A stretch of 64,000 nucleotides of DNA from a virus (IMGVR_UViG_3300020048_000088:1-64000); one strand, 5' to 3'; shown: positions 11,603 to 61,013, numbered from the stretch's first letter. The notes: generated by a model not told the origin, from the sequence alone. A program made the numbers and translations.

Positions 11603-11645
11603 ATTTCAATCAACCCCGCCTGTTTAGGCGTTTTTGGGGAGCCTT

Positions 11646-30709: not shown

Positions 30710-30725
30710 GAATGCTCCTGTAAGT

Positions 30726-30745: not shown

Positions 30746-30751
30746 GTTACA

Positions 30752-36637: not shown

Positions 36638-36692
36638 AGGGGCTCCGTATGCGGACAGTTGCCGCGGGGTTTTACTTCGGGAGCCTCAGGGG

Positions 36693-38728: not shown

Positions 38729-39471
38729 AGTGAACTCCAAATGTGTGCCAATGGCACGGGTTAATGCATCCCACCCTCGACGTGAAGTCGAAGGTGTTCC
38801 ATAAAGTCATCAAAGTCAAGGTCCTCGGATGGCCTCCATTTGGTGGAGACCATGTCAAGGTACCTCGACGCGTCGTCGCACAGCGACTCAGCGCTTTTGA
38901 GGGCGCTGTGCTGGGGCACAAGGAACTTGCGCCACATTACGGGCTCCTTGCCCGTCCACTGCTCGTAAGCAAACAACATCAGGCTTTCGTCCGGGAGCGT
39001 CATGTAACCCAGGACGATCTTCAGGGCGAACGCCTGTTGAGTGAACCCCGTCACCATGCTGGTCGGCGGGGCGCTGGTTTCGTCGGTCACATAGCACCTC
39101 CTGTAATGGTTCCTGACTGTGTCAAATTCATGCGAATCGCTCTCACCCCCTTGGGTGAGATGGCCTGCCCTCTAAATTGCGCACCCACTCCGAGGAGTTT
39201 GAGGCTCGCGTTGTCGAGTTGGCTGGCGACTTCCTGGTCGAGTCCATAAACGGAGACGATGTAGCCCTCGGCCCAGCCCTTGCCATGGCGTGTGACACGC
39301 ATGACAAGAGCGTCGGCCTTGATGCCCACCTCAGCAGTATTCCCGAGCTCCTTGAGCTTCCAGGTTGTACCGTTCCAACTGGCTCTGACTTCTAGGTATT
39401 CGTTCTTCACGATTTTGATTCCTGTTGCTTGGGGGTGGGCTAGTTCCCCGGTTGGCCCTAACGGTGACGGA

Positions 39472-40179
39472 TCAGGCTTTCGCCATGAAGAAAACTGCCT
39501 GTGCCTTTGCCTTGCCTGAGCCGTGGGCGGGGAAGCCGATGATGAATCTCCGGTCAGGGTTGGCGCAGATGGCGCAGATGGCGCAGGTTGTGTTACCTAC
39601 AGTTGCCGGGCACACCATGACGGTGTTGCCAGCCGGCGTTTTCACTGTGGTGGTCTGGTCGATCGGCAAGATGACCACCACAGGCGCAATGCCGAGGGCG
39701 AAGAACGCGTCTGCCTCGTCCAGCGTTTCAGCGCTGAGGTTGACAGTGAATCCTTGCTCGTTGGCTTTTTGGAGAACCTCGGCGTTCTCCGGGATGAACG
39801 GGTCGTAATGGCAGAACGTGAACCCGTGTCGGCCTCGGTTGGCCTGCACAATCTTGTTCACAGACGCTGCGTCAAGGTAGACACGGTCACCTGGCAGGTC
39901 GCCGGCTTGGTCGTGGCGCCAGAGCTGGAACTTGGGCAGCGCCGCGATTTGCTCGCAGAACTCCTCCAGCGAGACACCCCTATCCCCCTCAGAGATCAGC
40001 CTCCAATGGAGCGCCAGGGGACCTTGCTCTCCGTAGCAGCCAGAGTCGTACAGGCTGCACCTTGTAGGGCACGTCGACCTTGACGTTGTGGACGCGGGAA
40101 TGCCTCCGAGTTTTTTGTTGGCAGACACCCGCGTCAAGTGGTACCGGTGCTCCGGAATTGATCGCTTTAGCTTAAACAT
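39472..40179 (-). CDS. Gp88/DUF7227-like Cys-rich (putative Fe-S, radical-SAM-like) protein
   Basis: S.N.K.G....TT.R.TCP..C......CY, RHDQAGD, NLSAE and CPA....TC..C..CA.....IIGFPAHG motifs. Confidence 0.6.
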   Translation of the reverse strand: MFKLKRSIPEHRYHLTRVSANKKLGGIPASTTSRSTCPTRCSLYDSGCYGEQGPLALHWRLISEGDRGVSLEEFCEQIAALPKFQLWRHDQAGDLPGDRVYLDAASVNKIVQANRGRHGFTFCHYDPFIPENAEVLQKANEQGFTVNLSAETLDEADAFFALGIAPVVVILPIDQTTTVKTPAGNTVMVCPATVGNTTCAICAICANPDRRFIIGFPAHGSGKAKAQAVFFMAKA

Positions 40180-40217
40180 TCTTACTCCAAAATTTGCCCA
40201 AAACAGGGCGGGGTGGT

Positions 40218-40490
40218 TTAACGCTTGGCGAAGCGTGGTGCGAAGCAGTCCTTCAGCTGCCCGGTTTCGCGGTTCATGTGGGTACGGATGCCTGCCACGT
40301 CGTGGCAGAAGTCGAGCTCGGGCGCCATCAGCAGCGCCTGCAGATCGAGCTTGGCGCCGTTTCTGTGGCAGGCGGTGACGTCCATCTCGGTCTCGAGCAG
40401 GTTGCGCCGCTGGTTGGTGATGCTGGCCCATCGCAGCACGATCTGGTTGATGAGGCGGGCGTCGCCGTTGGGGACTTCAAACTTAACCAT
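40218..40490 (-). CDS. DUF6874-like protein
   Basis: MD.TACH.NG..LDL..LL.A...DF.HDV.GI..HMNRETG.L..CF.PRF. Confidence 0.7.
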   Translation of the reverse strand: MVKFEVPNGDARLINQIVLRWASITNQRRNLLETEMDVTACHRNGAKLDLQALLMAPELDFCHDVAGIRTHMNRETGQLKDCFAPRFAKR

Positions 40491-42308
40491 TGGAGGCCTC
40501 CGGCGGACGTTTAAACAACTCGTAGCCGGCGCTGTACAGGGCCGCAGCGACACACTTGGGGCCGGTGTCCCGCCAGTAGACATCCTCCAGGCTCTCAAGG
40601 GCCTCCTCAAGGGTTTCAAGGGTTTCCTGCTTCTCCGCTTCGTGTATCGTGGCGCACACGGTTCCAGCTTTCGTCTCCCACCGGGTTACTTCACGCATTG
40701 GCGACCTCCGTGAACTTGGTCAGGCGCTCCACACGCTGGGCGTGGTACCCAAGCATGGCTTGGGAGTACTCCACCGCTGAGTGGGCCTCAAGCAGTGCCC
40801 GGCGGGCGTCCTCCAATTCGAGCTTGGCCAACGCGTCGGTGTCCTTCGGCCATGCGATTTCAGTCAGCTTTTTGAACATGGTGTTCTCCTTTGATCTTGT
40901 CGATGACGTCCAGGTAGTCATACCCGAACGATGAATGGCCGGTAGCCTTGCACAGGGCGCGCAAGGCGTCGGCAACTGGCTTTTGGGTGTAGTGGTTTTT
41001 GGATCGGTACGCCTGACCTTTGGTCACGTACACGACCATGCCGACAAGGGCATCGATCAGTTCTTGGGTCACTTGAGGTCTTTCACGAGGTCAAGTATTT
41101 GGAGATGTTTGGCACCCTGGTCCGTCAGCGCCCTGTAACCGCTTCTCGCCCAGTCGCCTATGTGTTGGGCTCTCATACTTACGGGGCCCAGAAGCTCTTT
41201 ACCCTCCGCGTCCAGGGCTTTCACACGATTCGCCAGGTGGTCAAAGTACAGCATCGCATTCAGCATTTCGTGCGCCCTGTCTTCGGCGCCCTCGGCGTAC
41301 TGCTGCAGCTCCTTCAGTTTCTCTGCGCGCTGGGCTGCTTTTTCGATGATGTCTTCGTAGTTAATGTTCATGCTGAACTCCAAGTTGTGTCTCAAATCGA
41401 GACGGTTAAGGAAGGTGCCCGGTTGCGTGATTAACTGCCGGGCGCAGCCTAACGAGGGAGACTCTCAAATCTCCGACAGTGTTGGGGGCGATCACGCACA
41501 GCCAACGACCGCCAATTGGTCAACTCCGGAATTTGGGGAACGCCTGGTAATGGTCGAAGAACTTTTCGTGGCTGCCGAGGTTTCCATCGGTGGCGCGGCC
41601 CGCCGCCTTGTTGATCAGCAGCAGGCGCACACCCAGTGGTGCGTGTGCGTCGATCGGCAACCAGAACACATCCTGCGCCACGGCTACGGTTCCAGCCACG
41701 TTGACCTTGATGTTTGGGGCGTCGCGCTTCTCAGCCACCTCGATGGCGTCCTGCAGCACTTTGATTGCCTCCCTCCACTCATACTCACAGCCACAGCAGT
41801 CGGGTGCTACTGGGCCAAGTAGCTGGATAGCTTGTTTCATTGCTTCAATCATGATTTGCTCCTTTGATTCCGTGTGCGGCTTCGATAATGTGAACCCATT
41901 GCTTGACAGTTTCAAATACCCACGGCTCTTTGCACATGGATTTGATCTGCTCGTCTGTCAGAGGCTGCTGCGCTGGTGCTGTTGGTGCTGCATAAAGCGG
42001 CTCCCATTCACCGCCACTACGTTGCTTTGGGCGGTGGGGTTGTAGCAACGGGTACACCGCTCTTGGGTGAGTCCAAGCCCCAGGCTCCACCTTCCCAGCC
42101 TGCTCGATTGCTTGGCGCAGGGCTGTGATAGCCTTTTCGATCTGGGTAACTTTGTTTGACCTAAACCAGCCACGCACATATTTGCAGACTGCTTGCCTAT
42201 CGAACATTGACGGTTCGTGCATCAGTGCATTTCCAATCATGGTTCCGTTGAGTCTTGTCGAGTCTTCAAGCGCCTCAAGCGCCTGTTTCATCACATTAAT
42301 GCTCATTT

Positions 42309-42530
42309 TTAAAACCCGGCGTAAGTGCCGGTTCCGTTAAGTGCGTGCCAGACCACTTGGCGCGACACGTTGAATTTGTAGGCGATGGTCTTGCACAGCG
42401 CCCCCTCGACCCGCATCGTGCGGGCCTCCAGCACTTGGTCGATGTTGAGTGCGGGTTTGTTGTGGCTGCGGCGCGCGCCCCCGTTGCCGGCCCACAGCCC
42501 TGGCGTTCTGAGGTAGACGCCACTTGGCAT
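42309..42530 (-). CDS. Small HTH DNA-binding protein
   Basis: L..DQV.E.R.......K.IA.KFNVSRQVVW. Confidence 0.55.
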   Translation of the reverse strand: MPSGVYLRTPGLWAGNGGARRSHNKPALNIDQVLEARTMRVEGALCKTIAYKFNVSRQVVWHALNGTGTYAGF

Positions 42531-43123
42531 CACAGCTCCGACGCAATCCAGAGTGCACAGGACGCAAGCGTCATCAGCGCAAGCACCCGCCCGCCCCAGA
42601 TGCAGAGGTCGTCGATGTAGTTCTGTCGAATATCGCGGCGCGAGGCGCCTCGGGTGTAGTCTTCGTTTCGTTTCATGCTCGCTCCAAAATTTCAGTTTCA
42701 ATTCTTTGCCGATCGCCATCGGTCATCTTTGCCTCCAGCCACGGCGCAGGGCGGCCGCGCCGGTCGCAGACGTCGAACTCGATTTCGCCGCCACGCTCGG
42801 GCTCCCAGTTGTCAGGATGGCCCCTGAGGTGGGCACGGGTGTAGGGTTCGATGTGCACAACATCGATCTGGCAGGGGATTCCTGCAATCCTTGATTCCAT
42901 CGTCACCCTCCCATCAGTTGGTTGTACGGGTTGCACTCGTCAAGCTCCGCCTGGTACAGCATGATTTCCGTGTGCACAAAGTTCCAGTAGCCAAGATTTG
43001 TTTGGTAGTCCCTCACCGCGCGGCGCCAGTCAGCCAGTCGAACCACCGGGTGCTGCTCGGCCTCGTCGTACTTCTTCGCAAGCTCTCCCGCGGTGAGGCC
43101 GAAATCTTTGATCAGGTGGTGGC

Positions 43124-43642
43124 TCAAAGTAAATCCCCCACCTTTGCGCTGCTCAACTGCCTGGCGTTCATGCGGAACCTGCAGCCGTCATCCAGACGTG
43201 TGACGCTCCAACCCTTGCGGGGAGCCCATGGGGATTCCAGTCGATACTGGTGGCCGCCGTATTCGACGACCAGCCCTGGGGCCAAGGTTTTCTTCGGGAG
43301 CTTGGCGGCGTGATACTTCCGCACATCTTCGCGCCACTTGGCGGCAGACTCGTTGATCGGGTCTGACGCGGCGTCGATCAGACTCAGGGGGCAGTCGTAG
43401 TAGTACGGCCCCATGTCCTCACTCATCCCCTTGTAGCCCCAGCCGCCGTTGCGGTCCTTGGCGATCAGATCAAGTGTGATGAACGTGCGGTTTGCGGACT
43501 CCTGCCGCACAAGCTGCCAGATGTGGTTTCCGACTGCTCGGCCCTTGATCGGCGTGAAGTCTGGGCCGAAGTGTTTTGCAGACATGATCTCTGCGACGTG
43601 CGCCTTGCGGCCCACGTCAGCGTAAGCGAATGACCATCCCAT
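43124..43642 (-). CDS. DUF6927-like protein
   Basis: MGW..., WGYK.MSEDMGPYYYDCP..L....W RE.VR motifs. Confidence 0.7.
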   Translation of the reverse strand: MGWSFAYADVGRKAHVAEIMSAKHFGPDFTPIKGRAVGNHIWQLVRQESANRTFITLDLIAKDRNGGWGYKGMSEDMGPYYYDCPLSLIDAASDPINESAAKWREDVRKYHAAKLPKKTLAPGLVVEYGGHQYRLESPWAPRKGWSVTRLDDGCRFRMNARQLSSAKVGDLL

Positions 43643-43843
43643 GGTGAACTCCAAATGTGACCCAAAATTGGGTCGGGTTAAAAAATCAGTCGTTAGGGTC
43701 GAAACTGCTGAGGAGCTTGTCCGTATAGGCCTCTCGAACCCGTGCTGCGCGCTTCGCCTTCAGCGCATTCTGGCGCTCAAGCATGAGCATCCTGACCATG
43801 CCTTCCAGGAGTTTGACTCGCGCCTCCAGATCGTTGGGCTCCA

Positions 43844-47200: not shown

Positions 47201-47925
47201 TGCTCGTGGTGGCTGTAGCGGTAGTTGACGCTCGTGACGTTCTCCGCATAGAGAATGTCGACGATCTCCTGCTCGTTGCCGGCGCCCAGACTGCGGCTGG
47301 GGTTGCCGACGTAGAACGTCACTTTGTTGACACAGGCGAATCGCACGAGGGCGGAGATGTGATCGGGGGAACAGATGAATGCTGACATGGTGAACTCCAA
47401 AGGTGGGGCAAAGCGCCCCGGGTTTCAGGTGCTGGCTAATTCTTCGTCGTAGTTGGGGTTGCCGTCTTCGTCTTCCGTCAGAATCGTTACGCTGATAGGG
47501 CGTTTCGAGTCGACGGTTTCAGCGGCAGACCAGTCGGTGTTCAAGTCCAACTCCATCCACTCATCCTCCCCCTTAAACGCGAAGTGCAGGGTGTCCCACT
47601 TGATGAACCACTCGGCTATGTCCGCCCAGACTCTCCCCTCAGGCAGGGTGACACGGGATAGGGTGCCACAGTAATAGGTGGCCTCGATAAACACAGAGAC
47701 TTGTTTTGACATGGTTTACTCCTTAAATTTGAAACGGGCAGGGGTCGTGGCGTGGGCCGCCGGGCTGATTCAAGGCACAGCGGTCCATGTAGGCGGCCGA
47801 CAGGTCGTCGTAGTCCACACCGTAGACGTCGCACACTGCGTCAGCCGCATTGGGGTACTCCTGGCCCCGCTCGATGCGGTTGATGAGGTTGTCCAGCGCC
47901 CGTTCAAGGACTTGTTCTCTGTGCG

Positions 47926-48576
47926 TCATGCCATCACCTCTTCGCGTTTGGCACGGGTCTCAAGGTACTCGTGCACCTTGGTCAGTCGCGCCATCTCGGG
48001 ACAGTTGTCGAACAGGATTTCGTCAAATAAGCCGTTGCCGCGGTCACTCTCCATCAGCTCAACCTCTCGGTACTGGTCGAACTCGCCGGCGGTTTCCAGA
48101 TGGGCGTGGGCTTCGATCAGGGTGGCGATCTGGTTGTGGTCCCAGGAGTGGAAGTCACCCCACTCGTCGAGGTCGTTGGAGTAGAAGCTGCAGAACCCGT
48201 CGCGGGAGGTGTGGTTGGCACGCACCATGAGGCGCAGGGCAGGGGTGTCGACAGCGTCGAACACCTTCTGCAGCGACTCGGGGGTGATCCAGCAGAAGCA
48301 TCTATCTCCGGTGAAGTTGTATTCACGAGGCGAGACCAGCTCATCGAACGTCAACTCGAGGGCGAAGTTGTCGGCGAAGTTCTCGCAGTACGCCTTGGCG
48401 TAAGCCGTGTGAACAGCGTGCCAATTCATCGAACTCCACGCTCGCATGACGAGGTCGCCGTTGACTTCCCACCCGGTGTCGCGGTCGGAGAAGATGCTGT
48501 CGAGGGCGCTGTCGAGCGCGCCGTCGTGAAAGCTGTTGTAGAACCCGCTGAAGGGGATCACGCATAAGTGTTTCAT
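47926..48576 (-). CDS. Acidic conserved phage protein (candidate DNA mimic)
   Basis: PFSGFY.S, LVSPREYNF.GDR and SRDGF.SFY motifs; about 39 D/E versus about 17 K/R by hand count. Confidence 0.55.
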   Translation of the reverse strand: MKHLCVIPFSGFYNSFHDGALDSALDSIFSDRDTGWEVNGDLVMRAWSSMNWHAVHTAYAKAYCENFADNFALELTFDELVSPREYNFTGDRCFCWITPESLQKVFDAVDTPALRLMVRANHTSRDGFCSFYSNDLDEWGDFHSWDHNQIATLIEAHAHLETAGEFDQYREVELMESDRGNGLFDEILFDNCPEMARLTKVHEYLETRAKREEVMA

Positions 48577-51500
48577 TTTGGACTCCAAAGTTTGGGCAAA
48601 ATCGCCCGGGGTTTGCCAGGGGTTACTGGACTTCTCTCAACTCAAGCTCCGTGTTTCCATGCTTGGTGGCGTTGGTCTCCCACACTTCAAGGTTGAAGTA
48701 CTTGAGCAGGATGCGGATGGTTTCCTCGATCTGAGCTTTTGTGGCATCGTTGCTCCCCGGCTGGAATAGCTCCGTCTCTACGACAGGCTCGTCGTTTTGG
48801 TTTACGAAGGTCATAGCTGCGGGCCTTCCACGTCCTGAGCATGCTGAGCAAGCGCTCGCATGAAGCCCGAGAACTCCCTCGCGCTCAGGAACTGGAACGG
48901 CTCCCACTCGATCAGGTTTTGATCTCGCATGTAGCCCACCGGGCTGTCAGTCGCCGTGATCGCATCAAAGTGCTTCACAGCTTCCTCTTCAGTCACTTCC
49001 GCGTTGATCATCTGGCGGAAGGCGAACACCTTCCATTTGTCAAGCAGCTTCATACTCTCTCCAGTCATAGGTTGGCAGCTCGTCAACGACGTCTGCGTCT
49101 GCATCGAATCGAAGCCAGTTGGCCTCGTCACCATAGAGGTCACGCAGCCAGGTCAGGATCGGGATCGTCCACACATCATCCACGGGGTCGTCCGGCAGGT
49201 ACACGAACCCGCCCCCTGGGTAGGTCGCTGCCAGACCCTCGAAGGAGACCAGCGAGTGTGTGCTGGGCATGTGCTGGGTGCTGATGACCGGGATGGTCAT
49301 CACCCACATTGGTTTGGTGTTCATGATTTCTCCTTAGTAGCTTGCGTCAGTCGGTATCACGCCAAACGCTGCCTTGGCCAAGTCGTAGATGTCGTTCAGA
49401 CTCACCCGGACCGCGGGCTTGTCGGTGTTGTCGAAGGCCACCGCCCACCCGCTGATGTAGCGCAGCTTCTCGGCGCCGGCCTCCATCAGCACGCAGACCT
49501 CGCCGTCGGCGAGGTGCTCACTGATGTCGGATATGAGGTCGATGTCGATGCTCTCGTCGGTAGCCTCATCGTAGTAATACGCTGGGAAGCACCCTTCATC
49601 GGGGTCGTCGCTGTAGATCATTTGCATATCCCCTGCGGGGCTGCTCACCAGACCGGGTACGCTTTCGACCCAGGCGTCGAACGCCGCAATGTCCTTCACC
49701 TTGAAATAATTGCTGCGCGCGGTTCCGTTGAAATTTGCCATGTTGAACTCCTTGGTTATTTGTCCGTTTGCGACTCAATGAACGACTGGGCGTCGGCGGC
49801 GTGCCGAAAATCGGCAAGCCAGATTTGCACCAGCTCGCGCTTTTTGGCGTAGCAGCAGTAGACGCTGCTGACTTCCATATTGGTCTTCTGTTCGGTCTTG
49901 ATTACGAGTTTCATGTGATCTCCAGTTGGATGTCTTTGGTGTGTTCGGCAAGTTCGTAGTCGAACACGCTCTTGGCCTTGAGGGCAGCCATGAACTCATT
50001 TGAGGTGAGCTGTCGGCGGTCCGTTTCGGCATCGCGCAGGATGTTGTAGCAGCGCTGGTATTCGAGCAGTGTCTTGAGTTTCATATCGTTTCTCCTTCGT
50101 AGTCGTACTTGGCCATGGGTTCGCCGTCTTGGAGGATGACGACAGGCTCACCAGCGCAGCGGCCGTACCTGGCCTTGCTTTGGCGTTTGTACTCACCGTA
50201 CTGGCGCAGCGCCTCGTGGTAGTCGTCGCCGGTGTAGGTGGTGCCGATGTTGCCGACAATCACTTGGTATTTCATGTTCGTACGCACTTGAGTGCGCCTC
50301 TTTTGGTGAGTGAAAGAACGTAGTCGGGGTACTCGTGGATAAACTCCTCCGACTTGGCGATGTGCAGGCTGGCCTCGGAGTTCTGGCCATAGCGCTCAAG
50401 GTCCATGGCCGACTCAAAGAACGACGCCTTGGCGGTTTTCAGGCTTGGGTGCGGCTCGAACTCCGGGTACAGCGTCCCGGCGTAGCAGAGATAGCATTTC
50501 ATTGCAGTCTCTCCCATCTACGTTGGGCGTCAGCACAGATCATGACCAGCGCCTCGCTCACCGGTGCATAGGTATCCATGACGCTGATGCCGTGGTACTG
50601 AACCGTGCGCTTGATTCCAAGCAGGTCGCACAGGTTCATCAGGTAGAACGGCAGCGTGGCGACTGTCAACTTGTACCCGTCAGTGGCGAGGCTCATGCGC
50701 TTGTTGGCCCACTCCAGACACTTGACCAGATGCTTGAGCTGGTCGATTCCGGCACTGTGAACGTCGTGCGCCTTGAGCTCGATCTGAACCTGACCGTCTT
50801 TGAAGACTGCCAGGCGCATACCGAGGTCCTGCCAGCACTGGGTGTGGTACTGGGGCATGTACCCCTCAGCTGCCTGCTGGGCGCGGAAACTGACCCGGGT
50901 GCTGTCCACAGAACAGACGCTCGGGCCATAGTCGGCGCTGCCGATGCGCTCGCAGGTCGAAGACTTGCCAGGCCACGTCGGGATGAAGACTTCGACGCCT
51001 TTCATACTGTCACCCCCTGCGCATACCAAGGGGTTGTGGCTTCTGGTTTGTGCTCGGCCTGATCCGCAAGGTTCCACAGGTGTTCGGCCAGCGCCTTGGC
51101 CTGTTCGGGGCGCATGGTGTGGGTGAAGTTCAGCCCACCAGCGTAGGCGCTAAGGCTGATCAGGGCTTTGCCATCAAGTGCGTTGTTGGGCAGGACGCTG
51201 AGCTCGTAGCCGGGGTCTGTCCAGTCGAGCCAATTGGAAAATTTCATGGGAACTCCTAAGGGTGGCGCAAATCGCGCCGTTGTTGTGGGGCATGATTGCC
51301 CCGGGGTTACTCAGCCAGGTGGCTGAGGTCTTTCAGGTGGCCCCTGCACAAGAGCAGGACGTGGTAGTCCTGCGGGTCCACCCAGTCGTCGTCGCCGGGG
51401 TCGAGGCTCCAGCCGTCCGAAGTCTTGGCTTCGTCTCTTGCAAGGCTCACAGCATGTTTTAGGCAGCAGGACTCCACATAGGCCAGGTAAGTGTCCTTGC

Positions 51501-52588
51501 CGAACTCGCTGGCGATGTAATCGGGCCGCAAAAGCAGTACGGTGTAGTTCATGACAGGTCCGTCTCAAGGCACCGCAGCTGCAGGATTGCTCTCTCAAGC
51601 ATTTCCTTGAACTCCCCCGCGGACTCGGCGTCGTGGGCTTCGTCCATCAGGAACCTGAACAGTCCGTCGCCGCAGGTTTTGAGCTCCGCCTTGGTGTTGA
51701 CGTACAGGAGTTCGCCACCACAGTAGTGGGCACGGACGAGGATTTGGTTGGGGTTGAGTTTCATGTTGTCATCCCCACCAGCGATTCAAGGTCCAGCGCC
51801 GCGGTGAATGGGACAAGCCCACTCTCTTGGCCCGACATGTCAAGGATGACGCCCTCGTTGGTCACAATCACATGGAGGTCGAGAATCTCATCGTCATCCT
51901 CCCCAGCCTCACGGAAAATGAACCGGATTGGGTTGTCAAGGTCGATCCACGTCATGCCGTCGTCGATTGAGAATTGGTTGAGTTTCATGATCGGACTCCG
52001 TCCAAAATGGTCAGGTTGTTGGTGAAGCCTTCCTCGCTGGTGTGCTTCAGGCTGAACAGGACGATGAAGGTCGCGTCGTCGTAGATGCGCAGGGTCGACC
52101 CGCCGATCCGGTACTCCGGCTCGAACACGGCCAGCGTCGCCGGGTAATCCTCAGCGTCCTCGTCCTCGGTGAACAGCTGGTAGCCGGCTGCGTAGTGGAT
52201 GTTTCCGCTGTGCACGCCCATCTCCTTGAGCCGGGTTGCGATTGCCGGAATGCGCTCCAGCCACTCGTCGCCAAGGTAGACCTCGACGTGCGTCGGGTTC
52301 TCGGCCCACTCGACGTTGCATTGATACTCAGACTTGAATGTGATCACGATATGAACTCCCCTGTGGGTACCAGGCTCACCATGTGGCGCAGTCGCGCTGG
52401 CAAGCCGAATTTGCGCGCAGCCATGAAGCGCGCTTCATGGTCGGTTCTGGCCCACACGTCAACCGACGCGCCAGCCCATGTTCCGAAATACTTTCTCATT
52501 CTGAACTCCAAAACCTGTGCACAAAAGCATGCATCAGGAAAGCGAAACGCTTCGGATTGGGCGGCATGCCACCCAATGTGAAACGAAC

Positions 52589-53503
52589 TCAGTCTTCGTT
52601 GTCAAGCCATTCGCCGTGCGGCCCTTGAACCTTGCCTGTCATCTTGGCCAGCTCGTTGGCGGCCTCCGCAAATTCAGGGTCGCCAAGCTGTTGGAACGCC
52701 GCGTTGCAGGCTACCTGGATTTTGAGCAGGTTGATGGTGGTGCCGTCCTCCATGGTCAGGATGCCACCGCTGATGGAGCAGGGGATGGTGCGGGGTTCTG
52801 GCTTGGTAGCGTTGATGAGGTCCAGGCAGTGTCCACAAGGGTCGTCGTCGAACTCATAGACCTCCTGAATGCGCCGGCGCATCTCAACGCACTCCGCCGG
52901 GGTGAACAGCGGACCGCCGTCAGCTCCCACGATGGACTCCGGCGAGTCCTCCGGGTGGAACAGCAACCCGTCAGCGTTCAGCTGGTCGAAAAACGCGTGG
53001 GCACCCGCCTTGGACGTGATCGGCGTCTTGAAGTAGGGCTTCATTTCGGTCTCGTCAAGCTCCCAGCACCAAGCCCCGGCACCAACGTCGAACACGTCCA
53101 CCCAACCCTCGCCCTCGACCCAAATGGTGTGGAGCTTCCAAGTCTCCAGCTCATCCACACCCTCGACCCTTGCCGTCCACGTTTTGAACTCGGGGTCGTA
53201 CTCAAACTCCCCATAGGTGTTGGTGTTGGCGTTCGCCATTCTCTGCATCTCGCAGGGGGTGAAGCTCGGCATCGCCCAGCCATTCCAGCGGCTCCCGTCG
53301 CTGTAAGCGCGGTAGGGCGCGCCTCCGTCAATCGACACCAGCACTGGCCCATAGGGCCGGACCTCGATGCAGGGCTTGAACTTCTTGAAGAAGTCTTCGG
53401 CGCTTGTTTCAATACGAAACCCCCCTCCCGATGCCCAGAACGCGATTGGGGTGTCTGGGTCAATTTGGACCCGAACCCCGTCTTCGTCTTCAAATTCAAT
53501 CAT
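52589..53503 (-). CDS. Multidomain acidic hypothetical protein
   Basis: RWNGWAMP.FT domain fused to an FHPEDSP-containing domain; GGAG RBS. Confidence 0.55.
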   Translation of the reverse strand: MIEFEDEDGVRVQIDPDTPIAFWASGGGFRIETSAEDFFKKFKPCIEVRPYGPVLVSIDGGAPYRAYSDGSRWNGWAMPSFTPCEMQRMANANTNTYGEFEYDPEFKTWTARVEGVDELETWKLHTIWVEGEGWVDVFDVGAGAWCWELDETEMKPYFKTPITSKAGAHAFFDQLNADGLLFHPEDSPESIVGADGGPLFTPAECVEMRRRIQEVYEFDDDPCGHCLDLINATKPEPRTIPCSISGGILTMEDGTTINLLKIQVACNAAFQQLGDPEFAEAANELAKMTGKVQGPHGEWLDNED

Positions 53504-54159: not shown

Positions 54160-56507
54160 TCGACCTCCGCATAGATTTCGCCCGGGAATCTCCCCCACGG
54201 GCGGGGTGCCTTGTGAATGGCGGCGCCGTAAGTCATGGCACGCACCGTCGCGATTTGGCGCCCCTCTGGCGCCCAGAACAGTTTCCAGGTTTTCATGTCA
54301 GTCTCCTCTGATTCCGGTAAGCACTTCGGCGGCAGCACGCTGCCACATCATCGTGTGGGTGCCCTTGGTGCCGTCGTTGGCCAGCAGCACAAGGTCGTAC
54401 AGCTTTGGGGCTGCCTTGATCAGTCTGGCGTTGGCATCAGCGTTGGCCCCGATGACCCTTGCAAGGTCTCGCCCGGAGCTGCCAGCGTAAATCTCATACT
54501 CCGGGGCGTAGTCGGGCGTGCCAAGTCTGCTGACGTACCACGGGCCTTGGGTGTGATTGCTCATTTCAGAATCCTCCTGTGAGTTTGACGCTCAGGCCGT
54601 CATGGTTGGCGGAAAATGTGAGACCCTTGCGCACGAGGGACTCAATCACGTCCATGAATCGATCGTGATTGGGGCAGACAATTACCATCCCGCCCATTGG
54701 GACGGGGCCACTCCCAATGGGCGGGCTGGGGCTGTCGGTGCTGCAGCGGTTGAGGGGTTTCATACCAGCACCTCCACTGGCGCCTTGCGCAGCATCGCCG
54801 GCAACACCCCCATGTAGGCCTTGCCAAACCCGCGGTCTTCAAAGAAGACTTGGCGCTCATCACCCACATCCCGAAACACCTTCAGCACCAGATGCGGACC
54901 CACACCAAACTTGATGCAGGTGTCCTTGGTGAGGTTGACCCGTTCCCGATCGATCTCGAGCGTGGTGACCAACTCGTGATCCCTCACCCGCAGGGTGATG
55001 GTGGGGTTGTAGCTGGTGGGGCAGTTTGCGTACTCCACGTAGAAAGAGTTTTCCATGTTGTCTCCTTAAGTCCAAGCCAAACCCATGGCGACCAACTGCT
55101 CGCCGCCGTAAACCTTGAGCTCGCCGCAGTTGGGGCACTTGTACTTCTGGGCATCCGGCTCCACGCCGCCGGCGATTTCGCCGCAGGCAAGGCAGAAGCC
55201 ATCGTCACCCATTTCCATCGCCAGCTCGAAGCTCGGCTTGTACTGAAGCTTGCCGCTTCCTGCGCGGTACTCGCGCACCTGATCTTTAATCATGTTTGGA
55301 CTCCAAAACCGATATAGAAAAGCCTATATCGGAAAGCTTTCGCTTCGTGATATGGGGCACGCCCCACATCCGGAAACGGCTTACAGTGGCGGGAACCCGC
55401 TGCGGTACTCGGACTCATCCACCCCGTACCGGTACCCCACCCACCGGTAAGCCCCGTTGGGCTGCCTCCCACACTTGTAGAAAAACCCGATTGGGTCTTC
55501 CACCAGCGACAGGGCTGCGTGCCTTGCGAACTCCGGGTTGGCATAGGCAAGGTCGATCACCTCCTTGGCTGTCAGGCGAACGCTGTCGGGATGCGCCACG
55601 AGCTGGGCTTCCCAAAGGTCGACCCGAGCGCGCTCAATTTGCTCCTCCGCGAGGGCGAGGTTGACGATGTTGGGGTTCATTTCGCCCCCTCCAGCAAGTC
55701 GCGCAGGCACAAGTTCACCCCTGACCAGATTTCGTGACCCTCCGGCGTGCGGAACCACTCGAACATGCCGATGATCAGATGGTCTTCGGGCTTGCGCTCC
55801 AGACGCGCCAACTCACAGATGTCAGCACGCTGCGCTGCGATCACAGCGATTTCCCGGGGCACGCCCAGCTCGACAAGGCGCTCGATGTATTTGAGTTTCA
55901 TTTGGACTCCAAAACCGATATAGAAAATCCTATATCGGGCAGCTTTCGCTTCGGATTACCCAGCACGCTGGGCAATGTGAAACGGAATCAGGCGAGCAGG
56001 GCGGCCACCACGAGAATCTCCACGAGCAGCATCAGGGCGCCGGCAGCCCAGAACTTGACACGCGCGGCAGCGCTCCCCACCCTGCGGGAGGCAAGCGGGA
56101 CGTTGAGTCCCGACGTCATGTTGGGCGTCCAAGGTGTGTCAAGCTTGCGCATAGCGAAGGGCACATCGTGCCACATCCAGGTTTCGTTGTAACGGTCTTG
56201 TTTGCCCCATCCCCAATGATCTGTTGGCCACATATTGAACTCCAGTTAGGCACGGATGCCGTGTTTGTCGAACCAGTTGTGAACGTGGCGGGAATACTCG
56301 CCACGCTCCGAGAGCAGGGTGCCGATGGAACCCTTGAGGAGGCTCTCGTAGTCCTCCTCGGGTGCGTCCCGGTCAGCGATCGTCTGGGTGGCGTTGTTGT
56401 CGCCACTCATGATCAGGGACTCAATCGCATTGCGATGCGAGAAGCCGCGGATTGCCTTGGCGGACGCCAGCAGCATGACGTATTTGGAGTCGTTGATCAT
56501 TTCAGCC

Positions 56508-56948
56508 TCACTCCGCCCAGGTGCGAATCGTGTCGACGATGGTGCGAGAGGTATCGCAGTCCAGCCGGTACTGGTCGGCGAAGAACCGGTGAATCTGAAC
56601 GACTGAGATGCTGAACTCATCGGAGTCACGAGCCAGTCGGAACTCAGCAGCCGTGACCTGCAGCTCTACCTCCCGCTGGGGGAAGCTCACGATCACGCAG
56701 CGGTCGTCGTCTTCTGACACCGGGCAGCGAACACCCGTGAGAATCGTGTCAACCACACGCATGGCCTCGAACAGGCCGACGCCGTGCTGCTCACGGATGA
56801 ACTTGATACTGGAGACGCGCTGTCCGTCAGCCTTGCTGCATCGGCTGATCAAGGTGTGCTCGGCATTTGTGATTTGCAGGGTACCCACGGTGCTCGGGTA
56901 CGACACAACGTAGGTGCTGGCGTCAGAGTTGGGGGAAACTGAGGGCAT
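56508..56948 (-). CDS. Protein with a ribosomal L7/L12 C-terminal-like motif
   Basis: VSSIKFIREQHGVGLFEAMRVVD resembles the K..IK..R...G.GL.EAK..V consensus. Confidence 0.45.
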   Translation of the reverse strand: MPSVSPNSDASTYVVSYPSTVGTLQITNAEHTLISRCSKADGQRVSSIKFIREQHGVGLFEAMRVVDTILTGVRCPVSEDDDRCVIVSFPQREVELQVTAAEFRLARDSDEFSISVVQIHRFFADQYRLDCDTSRTIVDTIRTWAE

Positions 56949-57502
56949 GATTGGACTCCAAAATGTGTGCAAAACCGCACAATCAAGCGTCCTAAAAGCA
57001 GGGCGCTTGAGTGTGGGCCCCCCGCAGGGTGCCACTTTGAGTTTCAACTCCCCTTTGGGATTCGGCGCACGAACACACCGACGTACTCGCACCCATGCTG
57101 GGCGGTGTACAGCCACTCGTCCATCTGGCTCTCCGTCAAGTCGGTGTCGACGTGGATTTGAGAATAGCTCTCATCTTCGTGGTATGGGCCACCGTCCCGC
57201 ACAGCTTGTGTGGTGAACTGCCAGCGCAATTTGTGGCGCAGCTTGGCAGCGTCTTTCGTTTTCACGTCGATGCCCAGGTGGTGAATTTGTGGAGCTGTGC
57301 AAGGCTCCGAAGTCGGCACGGGGTTGGGGTGGGTACCAGATTTCATATCGAACTCCAAAATTAGCCTCAAAACAGAGGCGGCCTCAGTGTATGTGCGCTG
57401 GCACACGGTTTAAGTAATCCCCCCCCCATTTGGGGGGGGCTAGGGGTCTCTATTTTTGTTTATGCTTCGCGGGTTGACCTAGGTCAACCTGAAAGGGTTG
57501 AC

Positions 57503-58252
57503 CTAGACCAGGGTTTTCAGGTCGAAATCCCGCGCAATTCGCTCGTACCGCTTGAATCGACGGGTCTCATACTGCCTCGAATTCAGCGCCGACTTGGTTT
57601 CTTTAACCAGCCGCTGGTACTCAACGACTGTTTCGGGGTCATCTGGGCCACTCACGGCAAGGGCCGCCCGGGTATCTAAGCGCAGTTGAACCACGCGCCG
57701 CCCAGCTATCTCGACAATGTCCTGCTGCCTCTCCACCAGCGTCCACGGCTCTTCCTCAAGCAGGCGCTTTTGCTCCCTCAGGTAAGGGTCCCGGTTCGCC
57801 TTTCGGTCTGCGATCTCAGCTTTCCTTTGAGCCCACAGGTAAGCGCGCTCCTGCCTCGCTGCAGCGTCATCGAGACGTTTGGCTCTGGTAGCTACCCGCT
57901 GGGCACGGGCGGCCCGCCTTGCCTCGATTTGAGCCAGGCGTGAGGCTCTGGCCTCGCGCTTTGCCTCACGCAGGGCTTCGAGTTCGACTTTCGCTTGGGC
58001 TCGGGATTCGCGTTTGGCTTCGAGTTCGACTTTCGCTTTGGCTCGGGATTCGCGTTTGGCTTTGGCTTGGGCTTGTGCCTGGGCTCTGGCCAATCGATCA
58101 GATCGTCTTGCAGCCCTCGCCACGACAAGGCTCAGTTGAGCGTTGGCCTTGGCGTTGGTGGGGTCGACTGTGAGGACTGCCGCCAGTCGGGCAAGCCTTT
58201 TCAGTTCGGTTGCCGGTGGCGGTTTTGGGGTCTTGAGGGGGCGCCCCATCAT
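57503..58252 (-). CDS. Basic Arg/Ala-rich coiled-coil protein with internal 14-aa duplication
   Basis: GRPLKTPK N-terminus (AT-hook-like); AKRESRA.AKVELE twice. Confidence 0.55.
   Translation of the reverse strand: MMGRPLKTPKPPPATELKRLARLAAVLTVDPTNAKANAQLSLVVARAARRSDRLARAQAQAQAKAKRESRAKAKVELEAKRESRAQAKVELEALREAKREARASRLAQIEARRAARAQRVATRAKRLDDAAARQERAYLWAQRKAEIADRKANRDPYLREQKRLLEEEPWTLVERQQDIVEIAGRRVVQLRLDTRAALAVSGPDDPETVVEYQRLVKETKSALNSRQYETRRFKRYERIARDFDLKTLV
57974..58060. repeat. 42-bp tandem duplication
   Basis: ggcttcgagttcgactttcgctt(g/t)ggctcgggattcgcgttt at 57974 and 58016. Confidence 0.9.
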
Positions 58253-59406
58253 TCATTGCGCCGGCGTTGGGCATCCCGGTCGACTTCGCGATGGCGCTCA
58301 GCCTTGGCCTCAGTCGCCGCGATCTGGGCATTGAGGGCAAGCTCTGCACCTGCTAGGGACGAGCGGCATCGAACCTGCTTCACAATCCGGCGCCCATGCT
58401 GCTCGAACGCGGTTCTGGCCTCGGTCAGCTTGGCAACAAGCAGTCCGTACTCAGGCTCGGGGCAAACCCTGATTCGGGACTGTGCCTCAAGCATTGCTTT
58501 GTACAGGGCGTCGTGATTGGCCTCGAAATCGGGTTCGGCGGCTATCTGCAAGGCCCGGATTTCGCGGGCCTCATCGCTCTGAGGTAGTCGTTGTGCGCTC
58601 ATATTGAGTCTTCTCCAATGAAAATGCCTAAGTCGAACCCCTCAAGCGCTCTTGCAAGCGCAGGTTGGCAGACGCTTCACTCAGCGCAGGGGTTCGGCTT
58701 AGGCACAGTGAAAGTCCCTGCCAAGGGACGGAAATCCAAAGATAGCACTATTCCGAATTGGATTCGGAATCGCTGAGGCAAGTGAGTCTCAAGGGTAGGC
58801 CCAAAAATGCAAATGCACCTAAGTAAGAAAAGGATAGTTATATTTAAATAATTAACTATTCTTACCTTATTGGGTTTCTCTAGCATCACTTTGGGGGAGG
58901 GGGGGTGTAGAGGTGCTTCTGCACTGATTTGAAGAAATCCTTGAAATCCTCAGGATTCCTACTGAAACTCAAAGTGAATTCCAAAATCACCTCTACAGGA
59001 GGGGTGGTATAAATCGCACTAGAGAACCTTGATTTGCCCCTAAACCTCAAAAACGCCCTAAAAAGTGCCCTTTTCGCCCAAAAGTGCAATCACGCCTTGA
59101 AGACTTGCGCAAAATTGCGTTTTGCACGGTACTCGGCCCGTCCAAGGCTTGGTTCGGGAGCTGGTTCGACTGTGAAGTCAGACAGGCATTCGTACGTGCT
59201 GAGGTCGATCACGCGGCCTGACTTGCGACGGGCTGCCCGGTCGGCGGTGTACAGGTTCTTGGTGGGCGCGCCAGATCGGGTGAATGTGCGGTTGCCATAG
59301 TCGTCAGCGACTGGCTCCATGACTGCGTAGAGACTCATCTCGTACTCCAAATTCACTGCGAAATTGCAGTCCGAATCCCACTTGAGAATGGGATTCAGAC
59401 TCGAAT

Positions 59407-59595
59407 TTAGCGGTCGAACTCGTCTGCCAAGGTGGCGGCGGCGTAGCCCAGAGCGGTCAGAAGTCCCACACCGATGGCGCTGAGGGCGGGGTGCAAACCC
59501 TGACCCGAGCCGTAGACGTAGTCAATGCCGAGCCAGGCCATTGGAAACATGCCCAAGAGGGCAACGAGGGCAGTTGCCCACATAAGTATTTTCAT
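59407..59595 (-). CDS. Small two-TM membrane protein
   Basis: Two hydrophobic helices; RBS with hairpin element. Confidence 0.6.
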   Translation of the reverse strand: MKILMWATALVALLGMFPMAWLGIDYVYGSGQGLHPALSAIGVGLLTALGYAAATLADEFDR

Positions 59596-59742
59596 TTTGA
59601 ACTCCGAATTGATCCCAGATTGGGATCGGGTTTGTGCTTAAAATTTAAGCAAAAATTTCAAATTAGGGCCGTTTTTGGGAAACTTTTCAGTATTATGTTA
59701 AGTTAAATATCGAATCAGCCCTGGCCCCAACAAGGTCGGCGC

Positions 59743-60270
59743 TTAGGTCATGGCCAACTTTTCAACCCCAACAACGACAGCGAACTCGCCATGGTTCTCG
59801 ACTGCGAACCGGTTGTAGGCATCCCCAGCGTCCTTGATTGAGTCGAAAAACCCAATGTGAACCGTAACGTTGTTGAGGCTGGCACTGGCCCGCCATTTAC
59901 CATGGGCGGGGGACCAGAAAACACCCTTGACACCGGACTTACTCCTGCGTGAAACACCTTGGTTACGGCGGTTCTCCTGCCTTGTGGCCTCAACAAGGTT
60001 AAGCAAAGCGTTGTTGGACTTGATTCTGTCCTTGTGATCGAGTTCCAGTTTCGGCCACACGCCATGAACGTAGAACCAGGCCAACCTGTGCGCTTTGTAT
60101 TTGACTCTGCCAATGTTTATCACGACGTACCCTTTCGGGTCAGTGAAGCCAGCCACATCTCCAGCTTTAACTCGGTAACTGCGTGGAGCAATCCACGTGA
60201 AAACTCCGCTGGTTTCGTTGTAATGCAGGAGTTGCTTTAGCAACTCGTTTGTAAGCTCATATCTGGTCAT
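59743..60270 (-). CDS. HNH-AP2 homing endonuclease
   Basis: AHRLAWFYVHG.WP...DH.DR..SNN...NL, then SG.KGV.W....KW.A......HIG.F.....A..AY (AP2). Confidence 0.92.
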   Translation of the reverse strand: MTRYELTNELLKQLLHYNETSGVFTWIAPRSYRVKAGDVAGFTDPKGYVVINIGRVKYKAHRLAWFYVHGVWPKLELDHKDRIKSNNALLNLVEATRQENRRNQGVSRRSKSGVKGVFWSPAHGKWRASASLNNVTVHIGFFDSIKDAGDAYNRFAVENHGEFAVVVGVEKLAMT

Positions 60271-61013
60271 TTTTGACTCTCCTTATGGGTGCAATTCACC
60301 CCCAATACTGACAGGGTCTAATGTCCGTGGTCAATCGCCAGGGAGCTATCAGTATTGGGGGTGGCCCGCTTGCGCAGGCCGGTGCTGGTTACGTCGATCC
60401 AGCTTCATGTCGAACGTGGTGTCCGAATGGTTACGGACTTGACAATGAATTGCTCGGGCAATCGAACCCGCCAACATTCAGGACGTGGTCTATCCTGCTG
60501 CGATCCTTGAAGCAGCTATCACCCCCAACATTGACGTTGTTGGGGCTTACGTGGTGCGATAACGGGCGCACCCCCGACAAGTTATTGAGCCGCTTACCCG
60601 AACGATTTACCAGCGTCCCCACTGTGCACACAGACCTATGGCAGGTTACGACCAGCTGTGGAGGGAAGGGGGATAGATATGGAACGTGATTGCTCACGGG
60701 CATCCTTGCGGATGCTTTAGTTGTCGTTGGGATAGTAGACACTCGCCAGCCCCGGCAGTTAGCCGGAACGGGGGTCTCGAACTTGTACGATTGGCCACCC
60801 AGCACGCGGAATCCCGGCGTACTCAATGGCCCCGTTTTGGCAAAATGCTATAGGAACACCCCACTCACGGCGGTGTTTATGGCGCACTGTGCCAAATACG
60901 GTTACACCCAAGCCGCCAGGCGCGATCACCGTGATTAGACGGAGTTATGGCGTGAGGCTTGAGTGAGAATTTAAATTGTGGAATTGACTACCGCCCCAAA
61001 AACGGTTACGCCG

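Follow-up and report, generated by a model that had tools for sequence, protein, structure and literature searches.

The window analysed here, a 64-kb stretch of DNA, derives from an uncultured, 81-kb, long-tailed phage whose metagenomic relatives carry the same module. In this phage and its relatives, a short RNA module heads every independently translated group of small early genes. The module comprises, from 5' to 3', a 5-bp hairpin of variable sequence, a U-rich spacer, and a ribosome-binding site (RBS). A covariance model with a seed of 25 copies, searched unfiltered against the entire window at a cut-off of E < 0.05, returned 12 matches, all on the minus strand within 38734-60310 and two of them absent from the seed. 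With three long-stem variants at 55.9, 55.3, and 52.5 kb, which have 9-bp or 4+4-bp stems and low model scores, the window contains 15 copies. The first-pass annotation had proposed about 15 elements in this early array, and all 13 of the hairpins it quoted were exact at their minus-strand coordinates.

All copies are described on the minus strand, 5' to 3' up to the start codon, with model scores in bits. The element before the HNH-AP2 endonuclease gene (60268..60310) reads GGGTG-aattg-CACCC, ataa, GGAG, ATG at 60270 (18.2 bits). It is followed by a 7-bp-stem element outside the seed (59593..59634; GATCCCA-atc-TGGGATC, aattc, GGAGTTCAAA, ATG at 59595; 27.2 bits) and by one at 59336..59378 (ACTGC-aatttc-GCAGT, gaattt, GGAG, ATG at 59338; 22.8 bits). 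The copy at 57344..57386 (GCCTC-tgtttt-GAGGC, taatttt, GGAGTTCG, ATG at 57346; 25.3 bits) was the only one that also passed a generic terminator scan, and the next lies at 56946..56988 ((T)GTGC-ggtttt-GCAC(A), catttt, GGAGTCCA, ATG at 56948; 22.0 bits). Each of the three variants belongs to a three-hairpin module. The variant at 55899..55944 (CCGATATAG-gatttt-CTATATCGG with TTTTGGAGTCCAA directly after, ATG at 55901; 9.6 bits) is the final hairpin of such a module of about 90 nt, and that at 55291..55340 (CCGATATAG-gctttt-CTATATCGG, TTTTGGAGTCCAAAC, ATG at 55293) is the final hairpin of another, with a whole-module z of -4.46. The third module copy contains the 4+4-bp variant at 52497..52543 (1x1 mismatch, loop gctttt, TTTTGGAGTTCAGA, ATG at 52499; z = -2.78).

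Further copies lie at 51245..51286 (GGCGC-gattt-GCGCC, accctta, GGAGTTCC, ATG at 51247; 34.7 bits), 48574..48615 (GGGC-gatttt-GCCC, aaacttt, GGAGTCCAAA, ATG at 48576; 35.3 bits), 47386..47427 (GGGGC-gcttt-GCCCC, accttt, GGAGTTCACC, ATG at 47388; 42.3 bits), 43640..43682 (GACCC-aatttt-GGGTC, acattt, GGAGTTCACC, ATG at 43642; 38.8 bits), and 41369..41411 (GTCTC-gattt-GAGAC, acaactt, GGAGTTCAGC, ATG at 41371; 33.1 bits). The last two precede a DUF7227 gene (40177..40217; GCCC-tgtttt-GGGC, aaatttt, GGAG, ATG at 40179; 34.9 bits) and an ATP-dependent DNA ligase gene (38726..38765; GTGCC-att-GGCAC, acattt, GGAGTTCACT, ATG at 38728; 28.2 bits), the latter copy being outside the seed.

The same covariance model recovered 62 copies across 13 contigs of one phage clade. 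Every copy lay on the coding strand, whereas control phage DNA totalling about 250 kb gave no match; the module is specific to this clade. The helix has a fixed size, being 5 bp in 43 of the 62 copies (range 4-7), and in 54/62 it ends at an unpaired C/A combination, with C on the 5' side and A on the 3' side. Hairpin free energy was -7.6 +/- 1.7 kcal/mol over the 62 copies. Hardly any variation is seen in the outer pair (G-C) or in the pair that closes the loop (C-G). Loops follow the pattern R-N-N-Y-U with 52% U, and the 5' flank reads A-A/C-C-C-C, in line with the AACCC-type flank and U-rich loop of the first-pass annotation. Loop flavour varies by genome, with GAAYU in L034 and GCUUU or ACCUU in L033 and L040. 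A GGCCC stem occurs seven times in L040, and 16-nt identical stretches are common to different copies. Genome-specific loops and repeated identical stems could stem from copying among elements instead of co-evolution with a factor.

Two classes of gene junction were observed, namely overlapping genes and gaps with an element. At the elements, the stop-to-start distance is 29-69 nt and the stop-to-stem distance varies from 3 to 39 nt. The 3' flank, A-(C/A)-N-UUU-GGAG, is single-stranded, G-free, and U-rich up to the GGAG, with U at two positions in 42/44 copies. The distance between stem and RBS, earlier put at 0-4 nt, had to be revised: the measured stem-to-GGAG gap is 5-8 nt, and 6-7 nt in 38 of 44 copies. 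GGAG is followed by the start codon after 5-7 nt. Rigid spacing to GGAG and variable spacing to the stop codon tie the hairpin to the downstream initiation region and not to the upstream gene.

The 32 nt 5' of GGAG gave a mean fold z of -2.56 against dinucleotide shuffles, a value biased by the choice of its 15 copies by eye. A second test took its anchors from gene calls only; its sample was 85 gaps, each 28 nt or longer, from 8 contigs, and the hairpin was required to end 13-22 nt before the start codon. Hairpins of at least 4 bp were present at this position in 60/85 gaps, compared with 16.6 +/- 3.9 in shuffles, and those of at least 5 bp in 47/85, compared with 4.7 +/- 2.1; the excess over shuffled controls holds for gaps chosen without reference to the hairpin. 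At tight gene junctions, the corresponding counts were 26/136 and 8/136. In the alignment, 93.1% of cells were paired versus 64.3% after shuffling, although this share is inflated because the alignment was fitted to the model. Cells changed on both stem sides numbered 75 versus 21 in shuffles. The three inner base pairs vary (GC, CG, UA, AU) both inside single genomes and among them. A covariation score of 0.674 compares with 0.164 for shuffled alignments, and 0/500 shuffles reached 0.674. G-U pairs outnumbered A-C mismatches by 8 to 2, but these numbers are partly an alignment artefact and too low to establish the sense-strand RNA as the active form.

Full stem swaps were found at orthologous sites, including those before the DUF7227 and ligase genes. 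The DUF7227-gene element has at least five different stems among eight orthologous sites, and the ligase-gene orthologues have GCGC/GCGC, GCGCA/TGCGC, and GAGGC/GCCTC. In L037, the site orthologous to 48574..48615 reads GGGGC-gctttt-GCCCC, and that orthologous to 47386..47427 reads GTAGC-aattt-GCTAC. Together with the covariation, these swaps support, from sequence comparison, the earlier proposal that selection acts on the hairpin structure. At the L015 ligase-gene site, the hairpin is missing while TAACC-TTTTGGAGTTCA-ATG is retained, so the hairpin is dispensable for at least one gene.

The elements had been described as absent from the structural and replication blocks. The 12 model matches are indeed confined to the early array, but three looser relatives lie outside it. 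One precedes an SNF2-type helicase gene (36635..36690, minus strand; AAAACCCC, GCGG-caactgt-CCGC, atac, GGAGCC). A GGCUCC lying upstream is complementary to GGAGCC, and pairing of the two can close around the hairpin; this relative is kept in L032, and the L036 version reads TGGGG-catcagt-CCCCA. Another, in the replication block (30707..30750, minus strand), carries a UUCG loop on an 8-bp stem, followed by acttaca, GGAG, and ATG at 30709 (z = -3.92). A terminator-like relative follows a fibre or decoration gene on the plus strand (11612..11649; AACCC, CGCCT-gttt-AGGCG, TTTTTGGGGAG directly after, then ATG).

The helicase-gene pairing, kept in L032, is a clear case of RBS masking for translational coupling, in which GGAG(UU) would stay paired to the C-rich 5' flank until freed by a ribosome completing the upstream gene. 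Flank-GGAG pairs also appear in some minimum-energy folds. As a general role for the element, this proposal of the first-pass annotation is very improbable. The proposed helix shows no two-sided change, and flank-GGAG pairing was lower in native than in shuffled sequences (0.40 versus 0.57, p = 6e-7). In L034 and L040, the UUCA after GGAG is lost despite the retained AACCC, and stop codons throughout the genome tend to be followed by C-rich sequence, also at places without a hairpin. GGAG followed by TTC or TCC was found at 15/51 early starts versus 0/13 replication and 1/11 structural starts, in favour of the translational-operator reading given below. Counting against that reading, predicted RBS accessibility did not differ between element-bearing and other starts (0.38 versus 0.43, p = 0.22).

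Weak intrinsic terminators or attenuators, which would stage early transcription until a modified polymerase reads through, would account for hairpins that are rich in GC and have some U residues after them. The UUUU directly 3' of the three long-stem variants and the UUUUU of the 11.6-kb relative resemble real terminators, and the element family may have descended from terminators. The staged attenuators suggested earlier are nevertheless quite improbable, because only 1/15 copies fits the generic pattern and generic sites are not enriched over shuffled expectation (21 vs 20.4; 25 vs 18.0). The first base 3' of the stem is A in 37/44 copies, and two or three non-U bases precede a run of only three U. 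Moreover, spacing is set by GGAG and not by the upstream stop codon, and the uniform 5-bp helix contrasts with terminators, whose sizes vary widely.

Promoters for a modified host polymerase were also considered, the hairpin being the spacer between AACCC, in the role of a -35-like box, and A-N-N-TTT, in that of a -10-like box. The two conserved boxes are indeed about 15-17 nt apart. Transcription would then start after GGAG, whose own distance from the start codon is normal for ribosome binding, and the intervening spacer shows covariation as a helix complete in itself. There is no enrichment of sigma-70-like sites, C-rich sequence also follows stops lacking hairpins, and the first box adjoins the second at hairpin-less sites. 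In a Curvibacter phage, the nearest cultured relative seen, the equivalent gaps instead hold extended -10-like promoters, as judged by eye. We therefore regard promoters as extremely improbable. The element matches no canonical terminator, sigma-70 promoter, or Rfam family, the last from an Rfam search with the element.

Gene adjacency was kept across 3/68 element junctions versus 47/215 others, counts that are pseudo-replicated, with reciprocal and related pairs taken together. At the 41.4-kb site, the element and the upstream non-coding stretch are common to the window, L032, and L037, with 1, 0, or 2 different genes after it; the L032 and L037 counterpart of the 41369..41411 element is GTTCC-aattt-GGAAC. 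These data, along with the 16-nt identities between copies, could indicate cassette boundaries as the main function, the shared module providing short homology for gene exchange, a role also put forward for PeSLs in T4-type phages. Such a main function appears improbable, since exchange by homology requires conserved sequence and not a covarying stem of fixed size. Non-coding gaps also tolerate insertions better than overlapping genes, which would give the same adjacency statistic without a dedicated cassette role. The gene gain and loss expected at the elements is seen in the adjacency counts, gene order among relatives breaking preferentially there, but intergenic gaps of any kind may permit such breaks.

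The architecture was not found described in the literature, consistent with the earlier view that it belongs to no described family; PeSL and SAS/ESAS come closest. In T4-type phages, PeSL (promoter-early stem-loop) cassettes combine a sigma-70-type early promoter with a terminator-like stem-loop (PMC2839356, PMC4122927; Arbiol 2010, Comeau 2014). Like the present elements, they are repeated short regulatory cassettes with a stem-loop between small variable early genes, at which insertions, deletions, and gene replacements among relatives cluster. Unlike PeSLs, the present elements carry no promoter, for which 29-69 nt leave no room, and their hairpin is locked 6-7 nt before the RBS while the stem sequence is free to vary. 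SAS repeats of Cluster K mycobacteriophages are conserved RBS-containing motifs that precede the starts of some of the non-structural genes (Pope 2011, PMC3203893), and about half have an upstream inverted repeat (ESAS) (PMC3203893). They likewise place an RBS motif just before start codons in a single orientation. In contrast, ESAS has 17-bp arms of conserved sequence and a spacer that varies, whereas the present arms span 5 bp and differ in sequence with pairing kept; the sequence and the host group also differ.

Lambda-type nut sites carry a boxB with a 5-bp stem and GNRA-like loop (GAAAA), with boxA alongside, in two copies. The elements share a 5-bp stem and five-base loop adjoining a short conserved single-stranded box. 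However, their loops are U-rich R-N-N-Y-U, they have no boxA consensus, and they number about 15.

The main rival is punctuation for processing or stability, in which an endoribonuclease, either host RNase E or a phage enzyme measuring a fixed distance from the hairpin, would cut the A/C-N-UUU spacer beside the hairpin and split the early transcript into units. The upstream piece would end in a 3' hairpin, and the downstream piece would begin just before its RBS, as at T7 RNase III sites or synthetic Csy4 sites between cistrons. In T7, the RNase III sites between early genes are long helices in two parts, with a length of at least about 20 bp. They similarly provide structured punctuation of a polycistronic early transcript made by host polymerase, but the present 5-bp hairpins of about -7.6 kcal/mol are far too short to be RNase III substrates. 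Hairpins of this size and energy also block 3' exonucleases weakly, and RNase E needs neither a fixed 5-bp size nor a conserved loop. Processing is favoured by the single-stranded, G-free, U-rich spacer, by the constant hairpin-GGAG distance, which suits an enzyme measuring from the hairpin, and by the long, polycistronic, host-polymerase-made message. T4 RegB, which cuts at GGAG with a conserved 3' extension (PMC1702504), and RNase E are precedents for cuts at or near GGAG in early mRNAs (PMC1702504, PMC3014915). On balance, processing is unlikely, though a serious contender.

The T4 gene 43 translational operator is a small hairpin just 5' of the RBS, and T4 RegA acts as one factor on many early initiation regions (PMC3014915). 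The element resembles the operator in geometry and the RegA regulon in logic, a likeness limited to these two aspects. The gene 43 operator is a single site and RegA sites are unstructured, unlike the multi-copy hairpins here, and no homologue of the gene 43, RegA, or RegB proteins was found in this phage. No regulator was found either, the conserved small early proteins having no informative family.

The hairpin-RBS module is real, conserved, and undescribed; its role is inferred. We tentatively favour, at somewhat less than an even chance, a recognition hairpin that works together with the RBS, as a docking signal or a translational operator present in many copies. The module probably acts as RNA rather than as single-stranded DNA, some factor presumably reads the hairpin, and the outcome would be control of initiation. 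The long early polycistronic message would be transcribed by host RNA polymerase; no phage RNA polymerase was seen, and the single giant ORF is the tape-measure protein. Each element would head an independently initiated translation unit, within which overlapping genes (ATGA) would be translationally coupled. At real gaps, the message would present the C-rich flank, the fixed-size hairpin, the G-free U-rich spacer, GGAG, and ATG, and the hairpin would be read jointly with the adjoining RBS. Gene exchange at element junctions would be a consequence of the shared module and not its purpose. A single trans-acting factor could set initiation on all of the approximately 15 units simultaneously, or later shut it off; candidates are an early or middle protein of the phage and the 30S platform acting with protein S1.

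The window covers bases 1–64000 of an IMG/VR virus record that was 81,313 bp long with a terminal overlap of 55 bp, and the assembly is therefore circular; GC content was about 59%. The terminase, portal, capsid, tape-measure protein and tail genes were located on the plus strand. The tape-measure ORF of 2,467 codons (aa) crosses the record's ends (plus strand, genome 75423–81313 continuing into window 1–1568; L039:11423–17311) and matched tape-measure protein families, which implies a very long-tailed siphovirus. Running from about 62.6 kb to 14 kb, the minus strand contained first about 65 small early ORFs and then genes for an ATP-dependent ligase, a SNF2-type helicase, a primase, a PolA-type polymerase, thymidylate synthase and SbcCD. 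The array is presumably transcribed by host RNA polymerase, as a phage enzyme of this kind was not seen. The DNA polymerase shared no more than 28% identity with its counterparts in Vibrio and Pseudomonas phages. Among cultured relatives, neither a near-identical phage record nor a close one was found. In viral contigs, the polymerase search returned a 6-kb contig only, and no relatives of the 304-aa and 216-aa early proteins were detected. The early region also encoded an HNH endonuclease with an AP2-like domain (59743–60270, minus); upstream of it lay roughly 650 nt of non-coding sequence (locus 59743–60953, minus) that was dense in hairpins and had no Rfam match.

Nearly all true gaps of at least 30 nt in the minus-strand early array displayed the same order: stop codon, A-A/C-C-C-C flank, hairpin, A-(C/A)-N-UUU, GGAG, 5–7 nt and ATG. 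The remaining genes mostly overlapped their neighbour by 4 nt and carried a plain GGAG. The 13 hairpins quoted in the first-pass annotation were all exact in the sequence. Because chance alone often places a hairpin of 4 bp or more close to a GGAG-plus-start, the naive scan for such hairpins was replaced by a covariance model and a gap-anchored test. With a cutoff of E<0.05, the model, built from 25 copies, recovered 12 in the window, two of them outside the seed. All 12 were on the coding strand within 38.7–60.3 kb. In the window, the motif including the ribosome-binding site, UUUGGAGU(U/C)CA, lay just 5' of the start codon in a subset of genes, and GGAG followed by TTC or TCC was almost restricted to early starts. 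This compact signal of about 34 nt splits the 22-kb early transcript into roughly 16 units.

Several variants of the module were observed in the window. Three longer-stem copies formed the final hairpin of a three-hairpin module of about 90 nt (52497–52590, 55291–55385 and 55899–55990, minus), in the order GTTTCACATTG, a variable-stem hairpin, CCGAAGCG..CGCTT and the long-stem element. The 55.3-kb copy had a fold z of -4.46. The first two conserved boxes of this module were 17 nt apart and resembled a weak promoter (TTCACA, 17 nt, TAATCC). Two degenerate modules were also present. At 56234–56270 (minus), the hairpin CACGG-cat-CCGTG lay within the terminal part of the upstream gene, ahead of GGAGTTCAAT. 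The hairpin-less TAACC-AAGGAGTTCAAC at 49742–49765 (minus) resembled the ligase site of L015, a ligase relative.

The covariance model detected 62 copies in 13 contigs, all 62 on the coding strand. In their alignment, 93.1% of cells paired compared to 64.3% in shuffles, a level reached by 0 of 500 shuffles, although the alignment was fitted to the model. The covariation score was 0.674 versus 0.164 in shuffles, and pairing collapsed when the partner column was slid. The three inner pairs were GC, CG, UA and AU, while the outer G-C and the loop-closing C-G were nearly invariant. Since this alignment was fitted to the model, a gap test anchored on gene calls alone was added. Hairpins with 4 bp or more that ended 13–22 nt 5' of the start occurred in 60 of 85 gaps, compared to 16.6 ± 3.9 for shuffles and to 26 of 136 tight junctions. 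With at least 5 bp, the counts were 47 of 85 gaps, 4.7 ± 2.1 in shuffles and 8 of 136 tight junctions.

Direct examples came from orthologous sites. The DUF7227 protein adjoining the array had many metagenomic relatives, and the contigs whose DUF7227 proteins were 54–75% identical (L032–L037, L040 and L041) displayed a matching gene layout with the element in the gaps. Stems at the orthologous pre-DUF7227 sites were GCCC/GGGC, GCCCC/GGGGC, GGCCC/GGGCC, GGGGC/GCCCC and GACCC/GGGTC. Ligase relatives at 69–78% identity (L003, L004, L015 and L016) carried the element 5' of the ligase gene with different stems, except for L015, in which the hairpin was cleanly lost and the flank and initiation region were retained. 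Compensatory pairing, covariation and these stem swaps bear out the first-pass annotation's view that selection acts on structure.

The element was confined to this clade in our searches. The covariance model found 0 copies in about 250 kb of controls, which comprised the remaining sequence of this genome, eight contigs from distant ligase relatives, another DUF7227 phage type and Curvibacter phage P26059A. The distant ligase relatives (L005–L014 and L020–L030) had a GC content of about 43%; the element was absent from L005–L014 by pattern scan and from L005–L008 and L010–L013 by covariance model. Curvibacter phage P26059A and contig L042 contained the DUF7227 gene and lacked the element. An exact-sequence search for the commonest element copy gave no match, and the sole Rfam match, at 21.5 bits against a gathering score of 45, was attributed to chance. 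The element is a real, clade-specific RNA module that was previously undescribed, in agreement with the initial impression that it belongs to no described family. The cultured, 84-kb Curvibacter phage P26059A (KY981271.1, 63320–83985) has the DUF7227 gene and an L7/L12-like early gene in common with the window; its early-gene gaps displayed, by eye, apparent extended -10 promoters (TGnTAnAAT-like) in place of the hairpin module. Some hairpin-less gaps in two DUF7227 relatives, L037 (about 740–779 and 4810–4850) and L041 (about 10740–10776), contained a common repeated leader, CTTCCCAACTCCA and then an A/G-rich stretch, which may be a second start-associated motif type in the clade.

The helix of the element was 5 bp in 43 of 62 copies (range 4–7 bp), a non-pairing C and A flanked it in 54 of 62, and its free energy was -7.6 ± 1.7 kcal/mol. 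The distance from helix end to GGAG was 6–7 nt in 38 of 44 copies, compared to 3–39 nt from the upstream stop to the helix start. The hairpin was 15–18 nt from the ATG, and stop-to-start distances were 29–69 nt. Loops followed an R-N-N-Y-U pattern (52% U) with genome-specific flavours. The base 3' of the stem was A in 37 of 44 copies, and three U began 3–4 nt later.

Termination is an unlikely role. Only one of 15 copies passed the pattern of a canonical intrinsic terminator, the terminator scan was unenriched, and A plus 2–3 non-U bases stood ahead of only three U, rather than a U-tract within 0–2 nt of a GC-rich stem. Stems of 5 bp are too weak for a terminator. The staged attenuators suggested in the first-pass annotation were thus not supported. 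A promoter role is likewise unlikely, since a sigma-70 scan was unenriched with no site at the elements, and the start site would come 3' of the GGAG. Furthermore, the C-rich box occurs genome-wide after stop codons and is present without hairpins. Stop codons were very often followed by CCC or CCCC in early and late blocks alike, and the C-rich 5' box is therefore partly a genome-wide habit; TAACCCCGGGG occurred three times (window 7999–8012, genome 73304–73320 and window 51540–51552, minus). Hairpin promoters of the N4 type were dropped because the giant ORF encodes the tape-measure protein and a phage RNA polymerase was not found.

It had also been proposed that the AACCC flank pairs with GGAGUU and masks the ribosome-binding site. 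This helix showed no two-sided change, and its part after GGAG was not retained in L034 and L040, both DUF7227 relatives. Flank-GGAG pairing was 0.40 in native sequences versus 0.57 in shuffled ones (p = 6e-7), and masking by the element is unlikely. A genuine masking helix is present 5' of the helicase gene (36635–36690, minus), where an upstream GGCUCC can pair perfectly with the GGAGCC ribosome-binding site and enclose a small hairpin; it was conserved in L032 at about 8200–8256. Upstream of the primase gene (34684–34728, minus), a conserved hairpin, AGCCC ... GGGCT, with an A-rich loop of 15–20 nt stood directly 5' of the start codon of a 37-codon ORF (34570–34683) without GGAG. Its counterparts were in L033 (about 13390–13429) and L034 (about 18710–18750), and the site may be an unusual initiation region.

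Gene order between relatives changed preferentially at the element junctions. Gene adjacency was kept across 3 of 68 element junctions compared to 47 of 215 others (odds ratio 0.165), with counts that pool related pairs and are pseudo-replicated, and with gaps that are perhaps permissive anyway. With this limit, the expectation that gene gain and loss break at the elements held. The 41.4-kb element and the non-coding stretch upstream of it persisted, followed by 0, 1 or 2 unrelated genes. Gaps in general are more permissive than gene overlaps, and we read this flux as a consequence of the module and not its purpose, and a pure recombination role is unlikely.

The closest analogues are the promoter-early stem-loops (PeSLs) of T4-type phages (PMC2839356, PMC4122927), the SAS/ESAS repeats of Cluster K mycobacteriophages (PMC3203893), and T4 gene 43, RegA and RegB (PMC3014915, PMC1702504); the element belongs to none of them. 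Both PeSLs and the element join a stem-loop to regulatory sequence between small early genes. Related phages differ by insertions, deletions and replacements that concentrate at PeSL cassettes, as at element junctions, and the flux observed here agrees with that behaviour. However, the PeSL cassette contains a sigma-70-like early promoter (-35, about 17 bp, -10), whereas the element has none and only 15–18 nt from hairpin to ATG. SAS/ESAS share with it an asymmetric conserved motif including the ribosome-binding site, 5' of start codons in a gene subset. However, their sequence, GGGATAGGAGCCC, differs from UUUGGAGU(U/C)CA, and their arms are 17-bp inverted repeats with a consensus, in contrast to 5-bp arms with three variable inner pairs. 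In the translational operator of the T4 gene 43 type, too, a hairpin directly precedes the ribosome-binding site, and the element's stem ends 6–7 nt before GGAG.

Generic stability or termination would require neither the fixed size of the helix nor its rigid coupling to the ribosome-binding site. Both features point to a reader of the hairpin and the initiation region together. We tentatively favor a recognition hairpin of measured size that is tied to the ribosome-binding site, that is, a multi-copy translational operator or docking signal heading each translation unit, although we hold this at somewhat less than even confidence. The main rival, a processing or stability site, is considered less likely. 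An RNase III site of the T7 type is a double helix of about two turns, and it was rejected given stems of 4–7 bp. A nut site consists of a boxA sequence and a 5-bp stem with a GNRA-like five-base loop; the 5-bp stem fits, but the loops are R-N-N-Y-U and the 5' box is A-A/C-C-C-C instead of boxA. Purely passive insulation was neither supported nor contradicted by predicted ribosome-binding-site accessibility, which did not differ between element-bearing and other starts.

No RNA-binding, sigma or antiterminator family was matched when 20 early proteins were compared with Pfam and PHROGs as candidate readers. A 249-aa early protein (57503–58252, minus) with a net charge of about +20 and long Arg/Ala/Lys repeats (AKRESRAQAKVELEA-like) could be a nucleic-acid binder; it had no counterpart in the relatives examined.

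A bolder and doubtful reading is a natural RNA punctuation code. The fixed 5-bp hairpin with its non-pairing C and A would have a dedicated trans-acting factor as its reader. This factor, a global translational regulator or else an endoribonuclease measuring from the hairpin, would switch or cut apart about 15 translation units of one early transcript. Evolution of the element together with its reader would explain the genome-specific loop flavours. Such a code would be the natural counterpart of synthetic Csy4-type insulators between cistrons.

Outside T4, T7 and lambda, little is known about how a phage that has no RNA polymerase of its own schedules the expression of dozens of tiny early genes. 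The present clade provides a clean, compact and well-conserved case of an early-gene signal, with 62 copies and clear covariation. The elements mark sites of early-gene gain and loss, extending the PeSL shuffling-point idea from T4-type myoviruses to an unrelated siphovirus lineage with a promoter-less module. If a factor reads the hairpin, the element would represent a new global post-transcriptional switch and a ready-made insulating part for synthetic operons.
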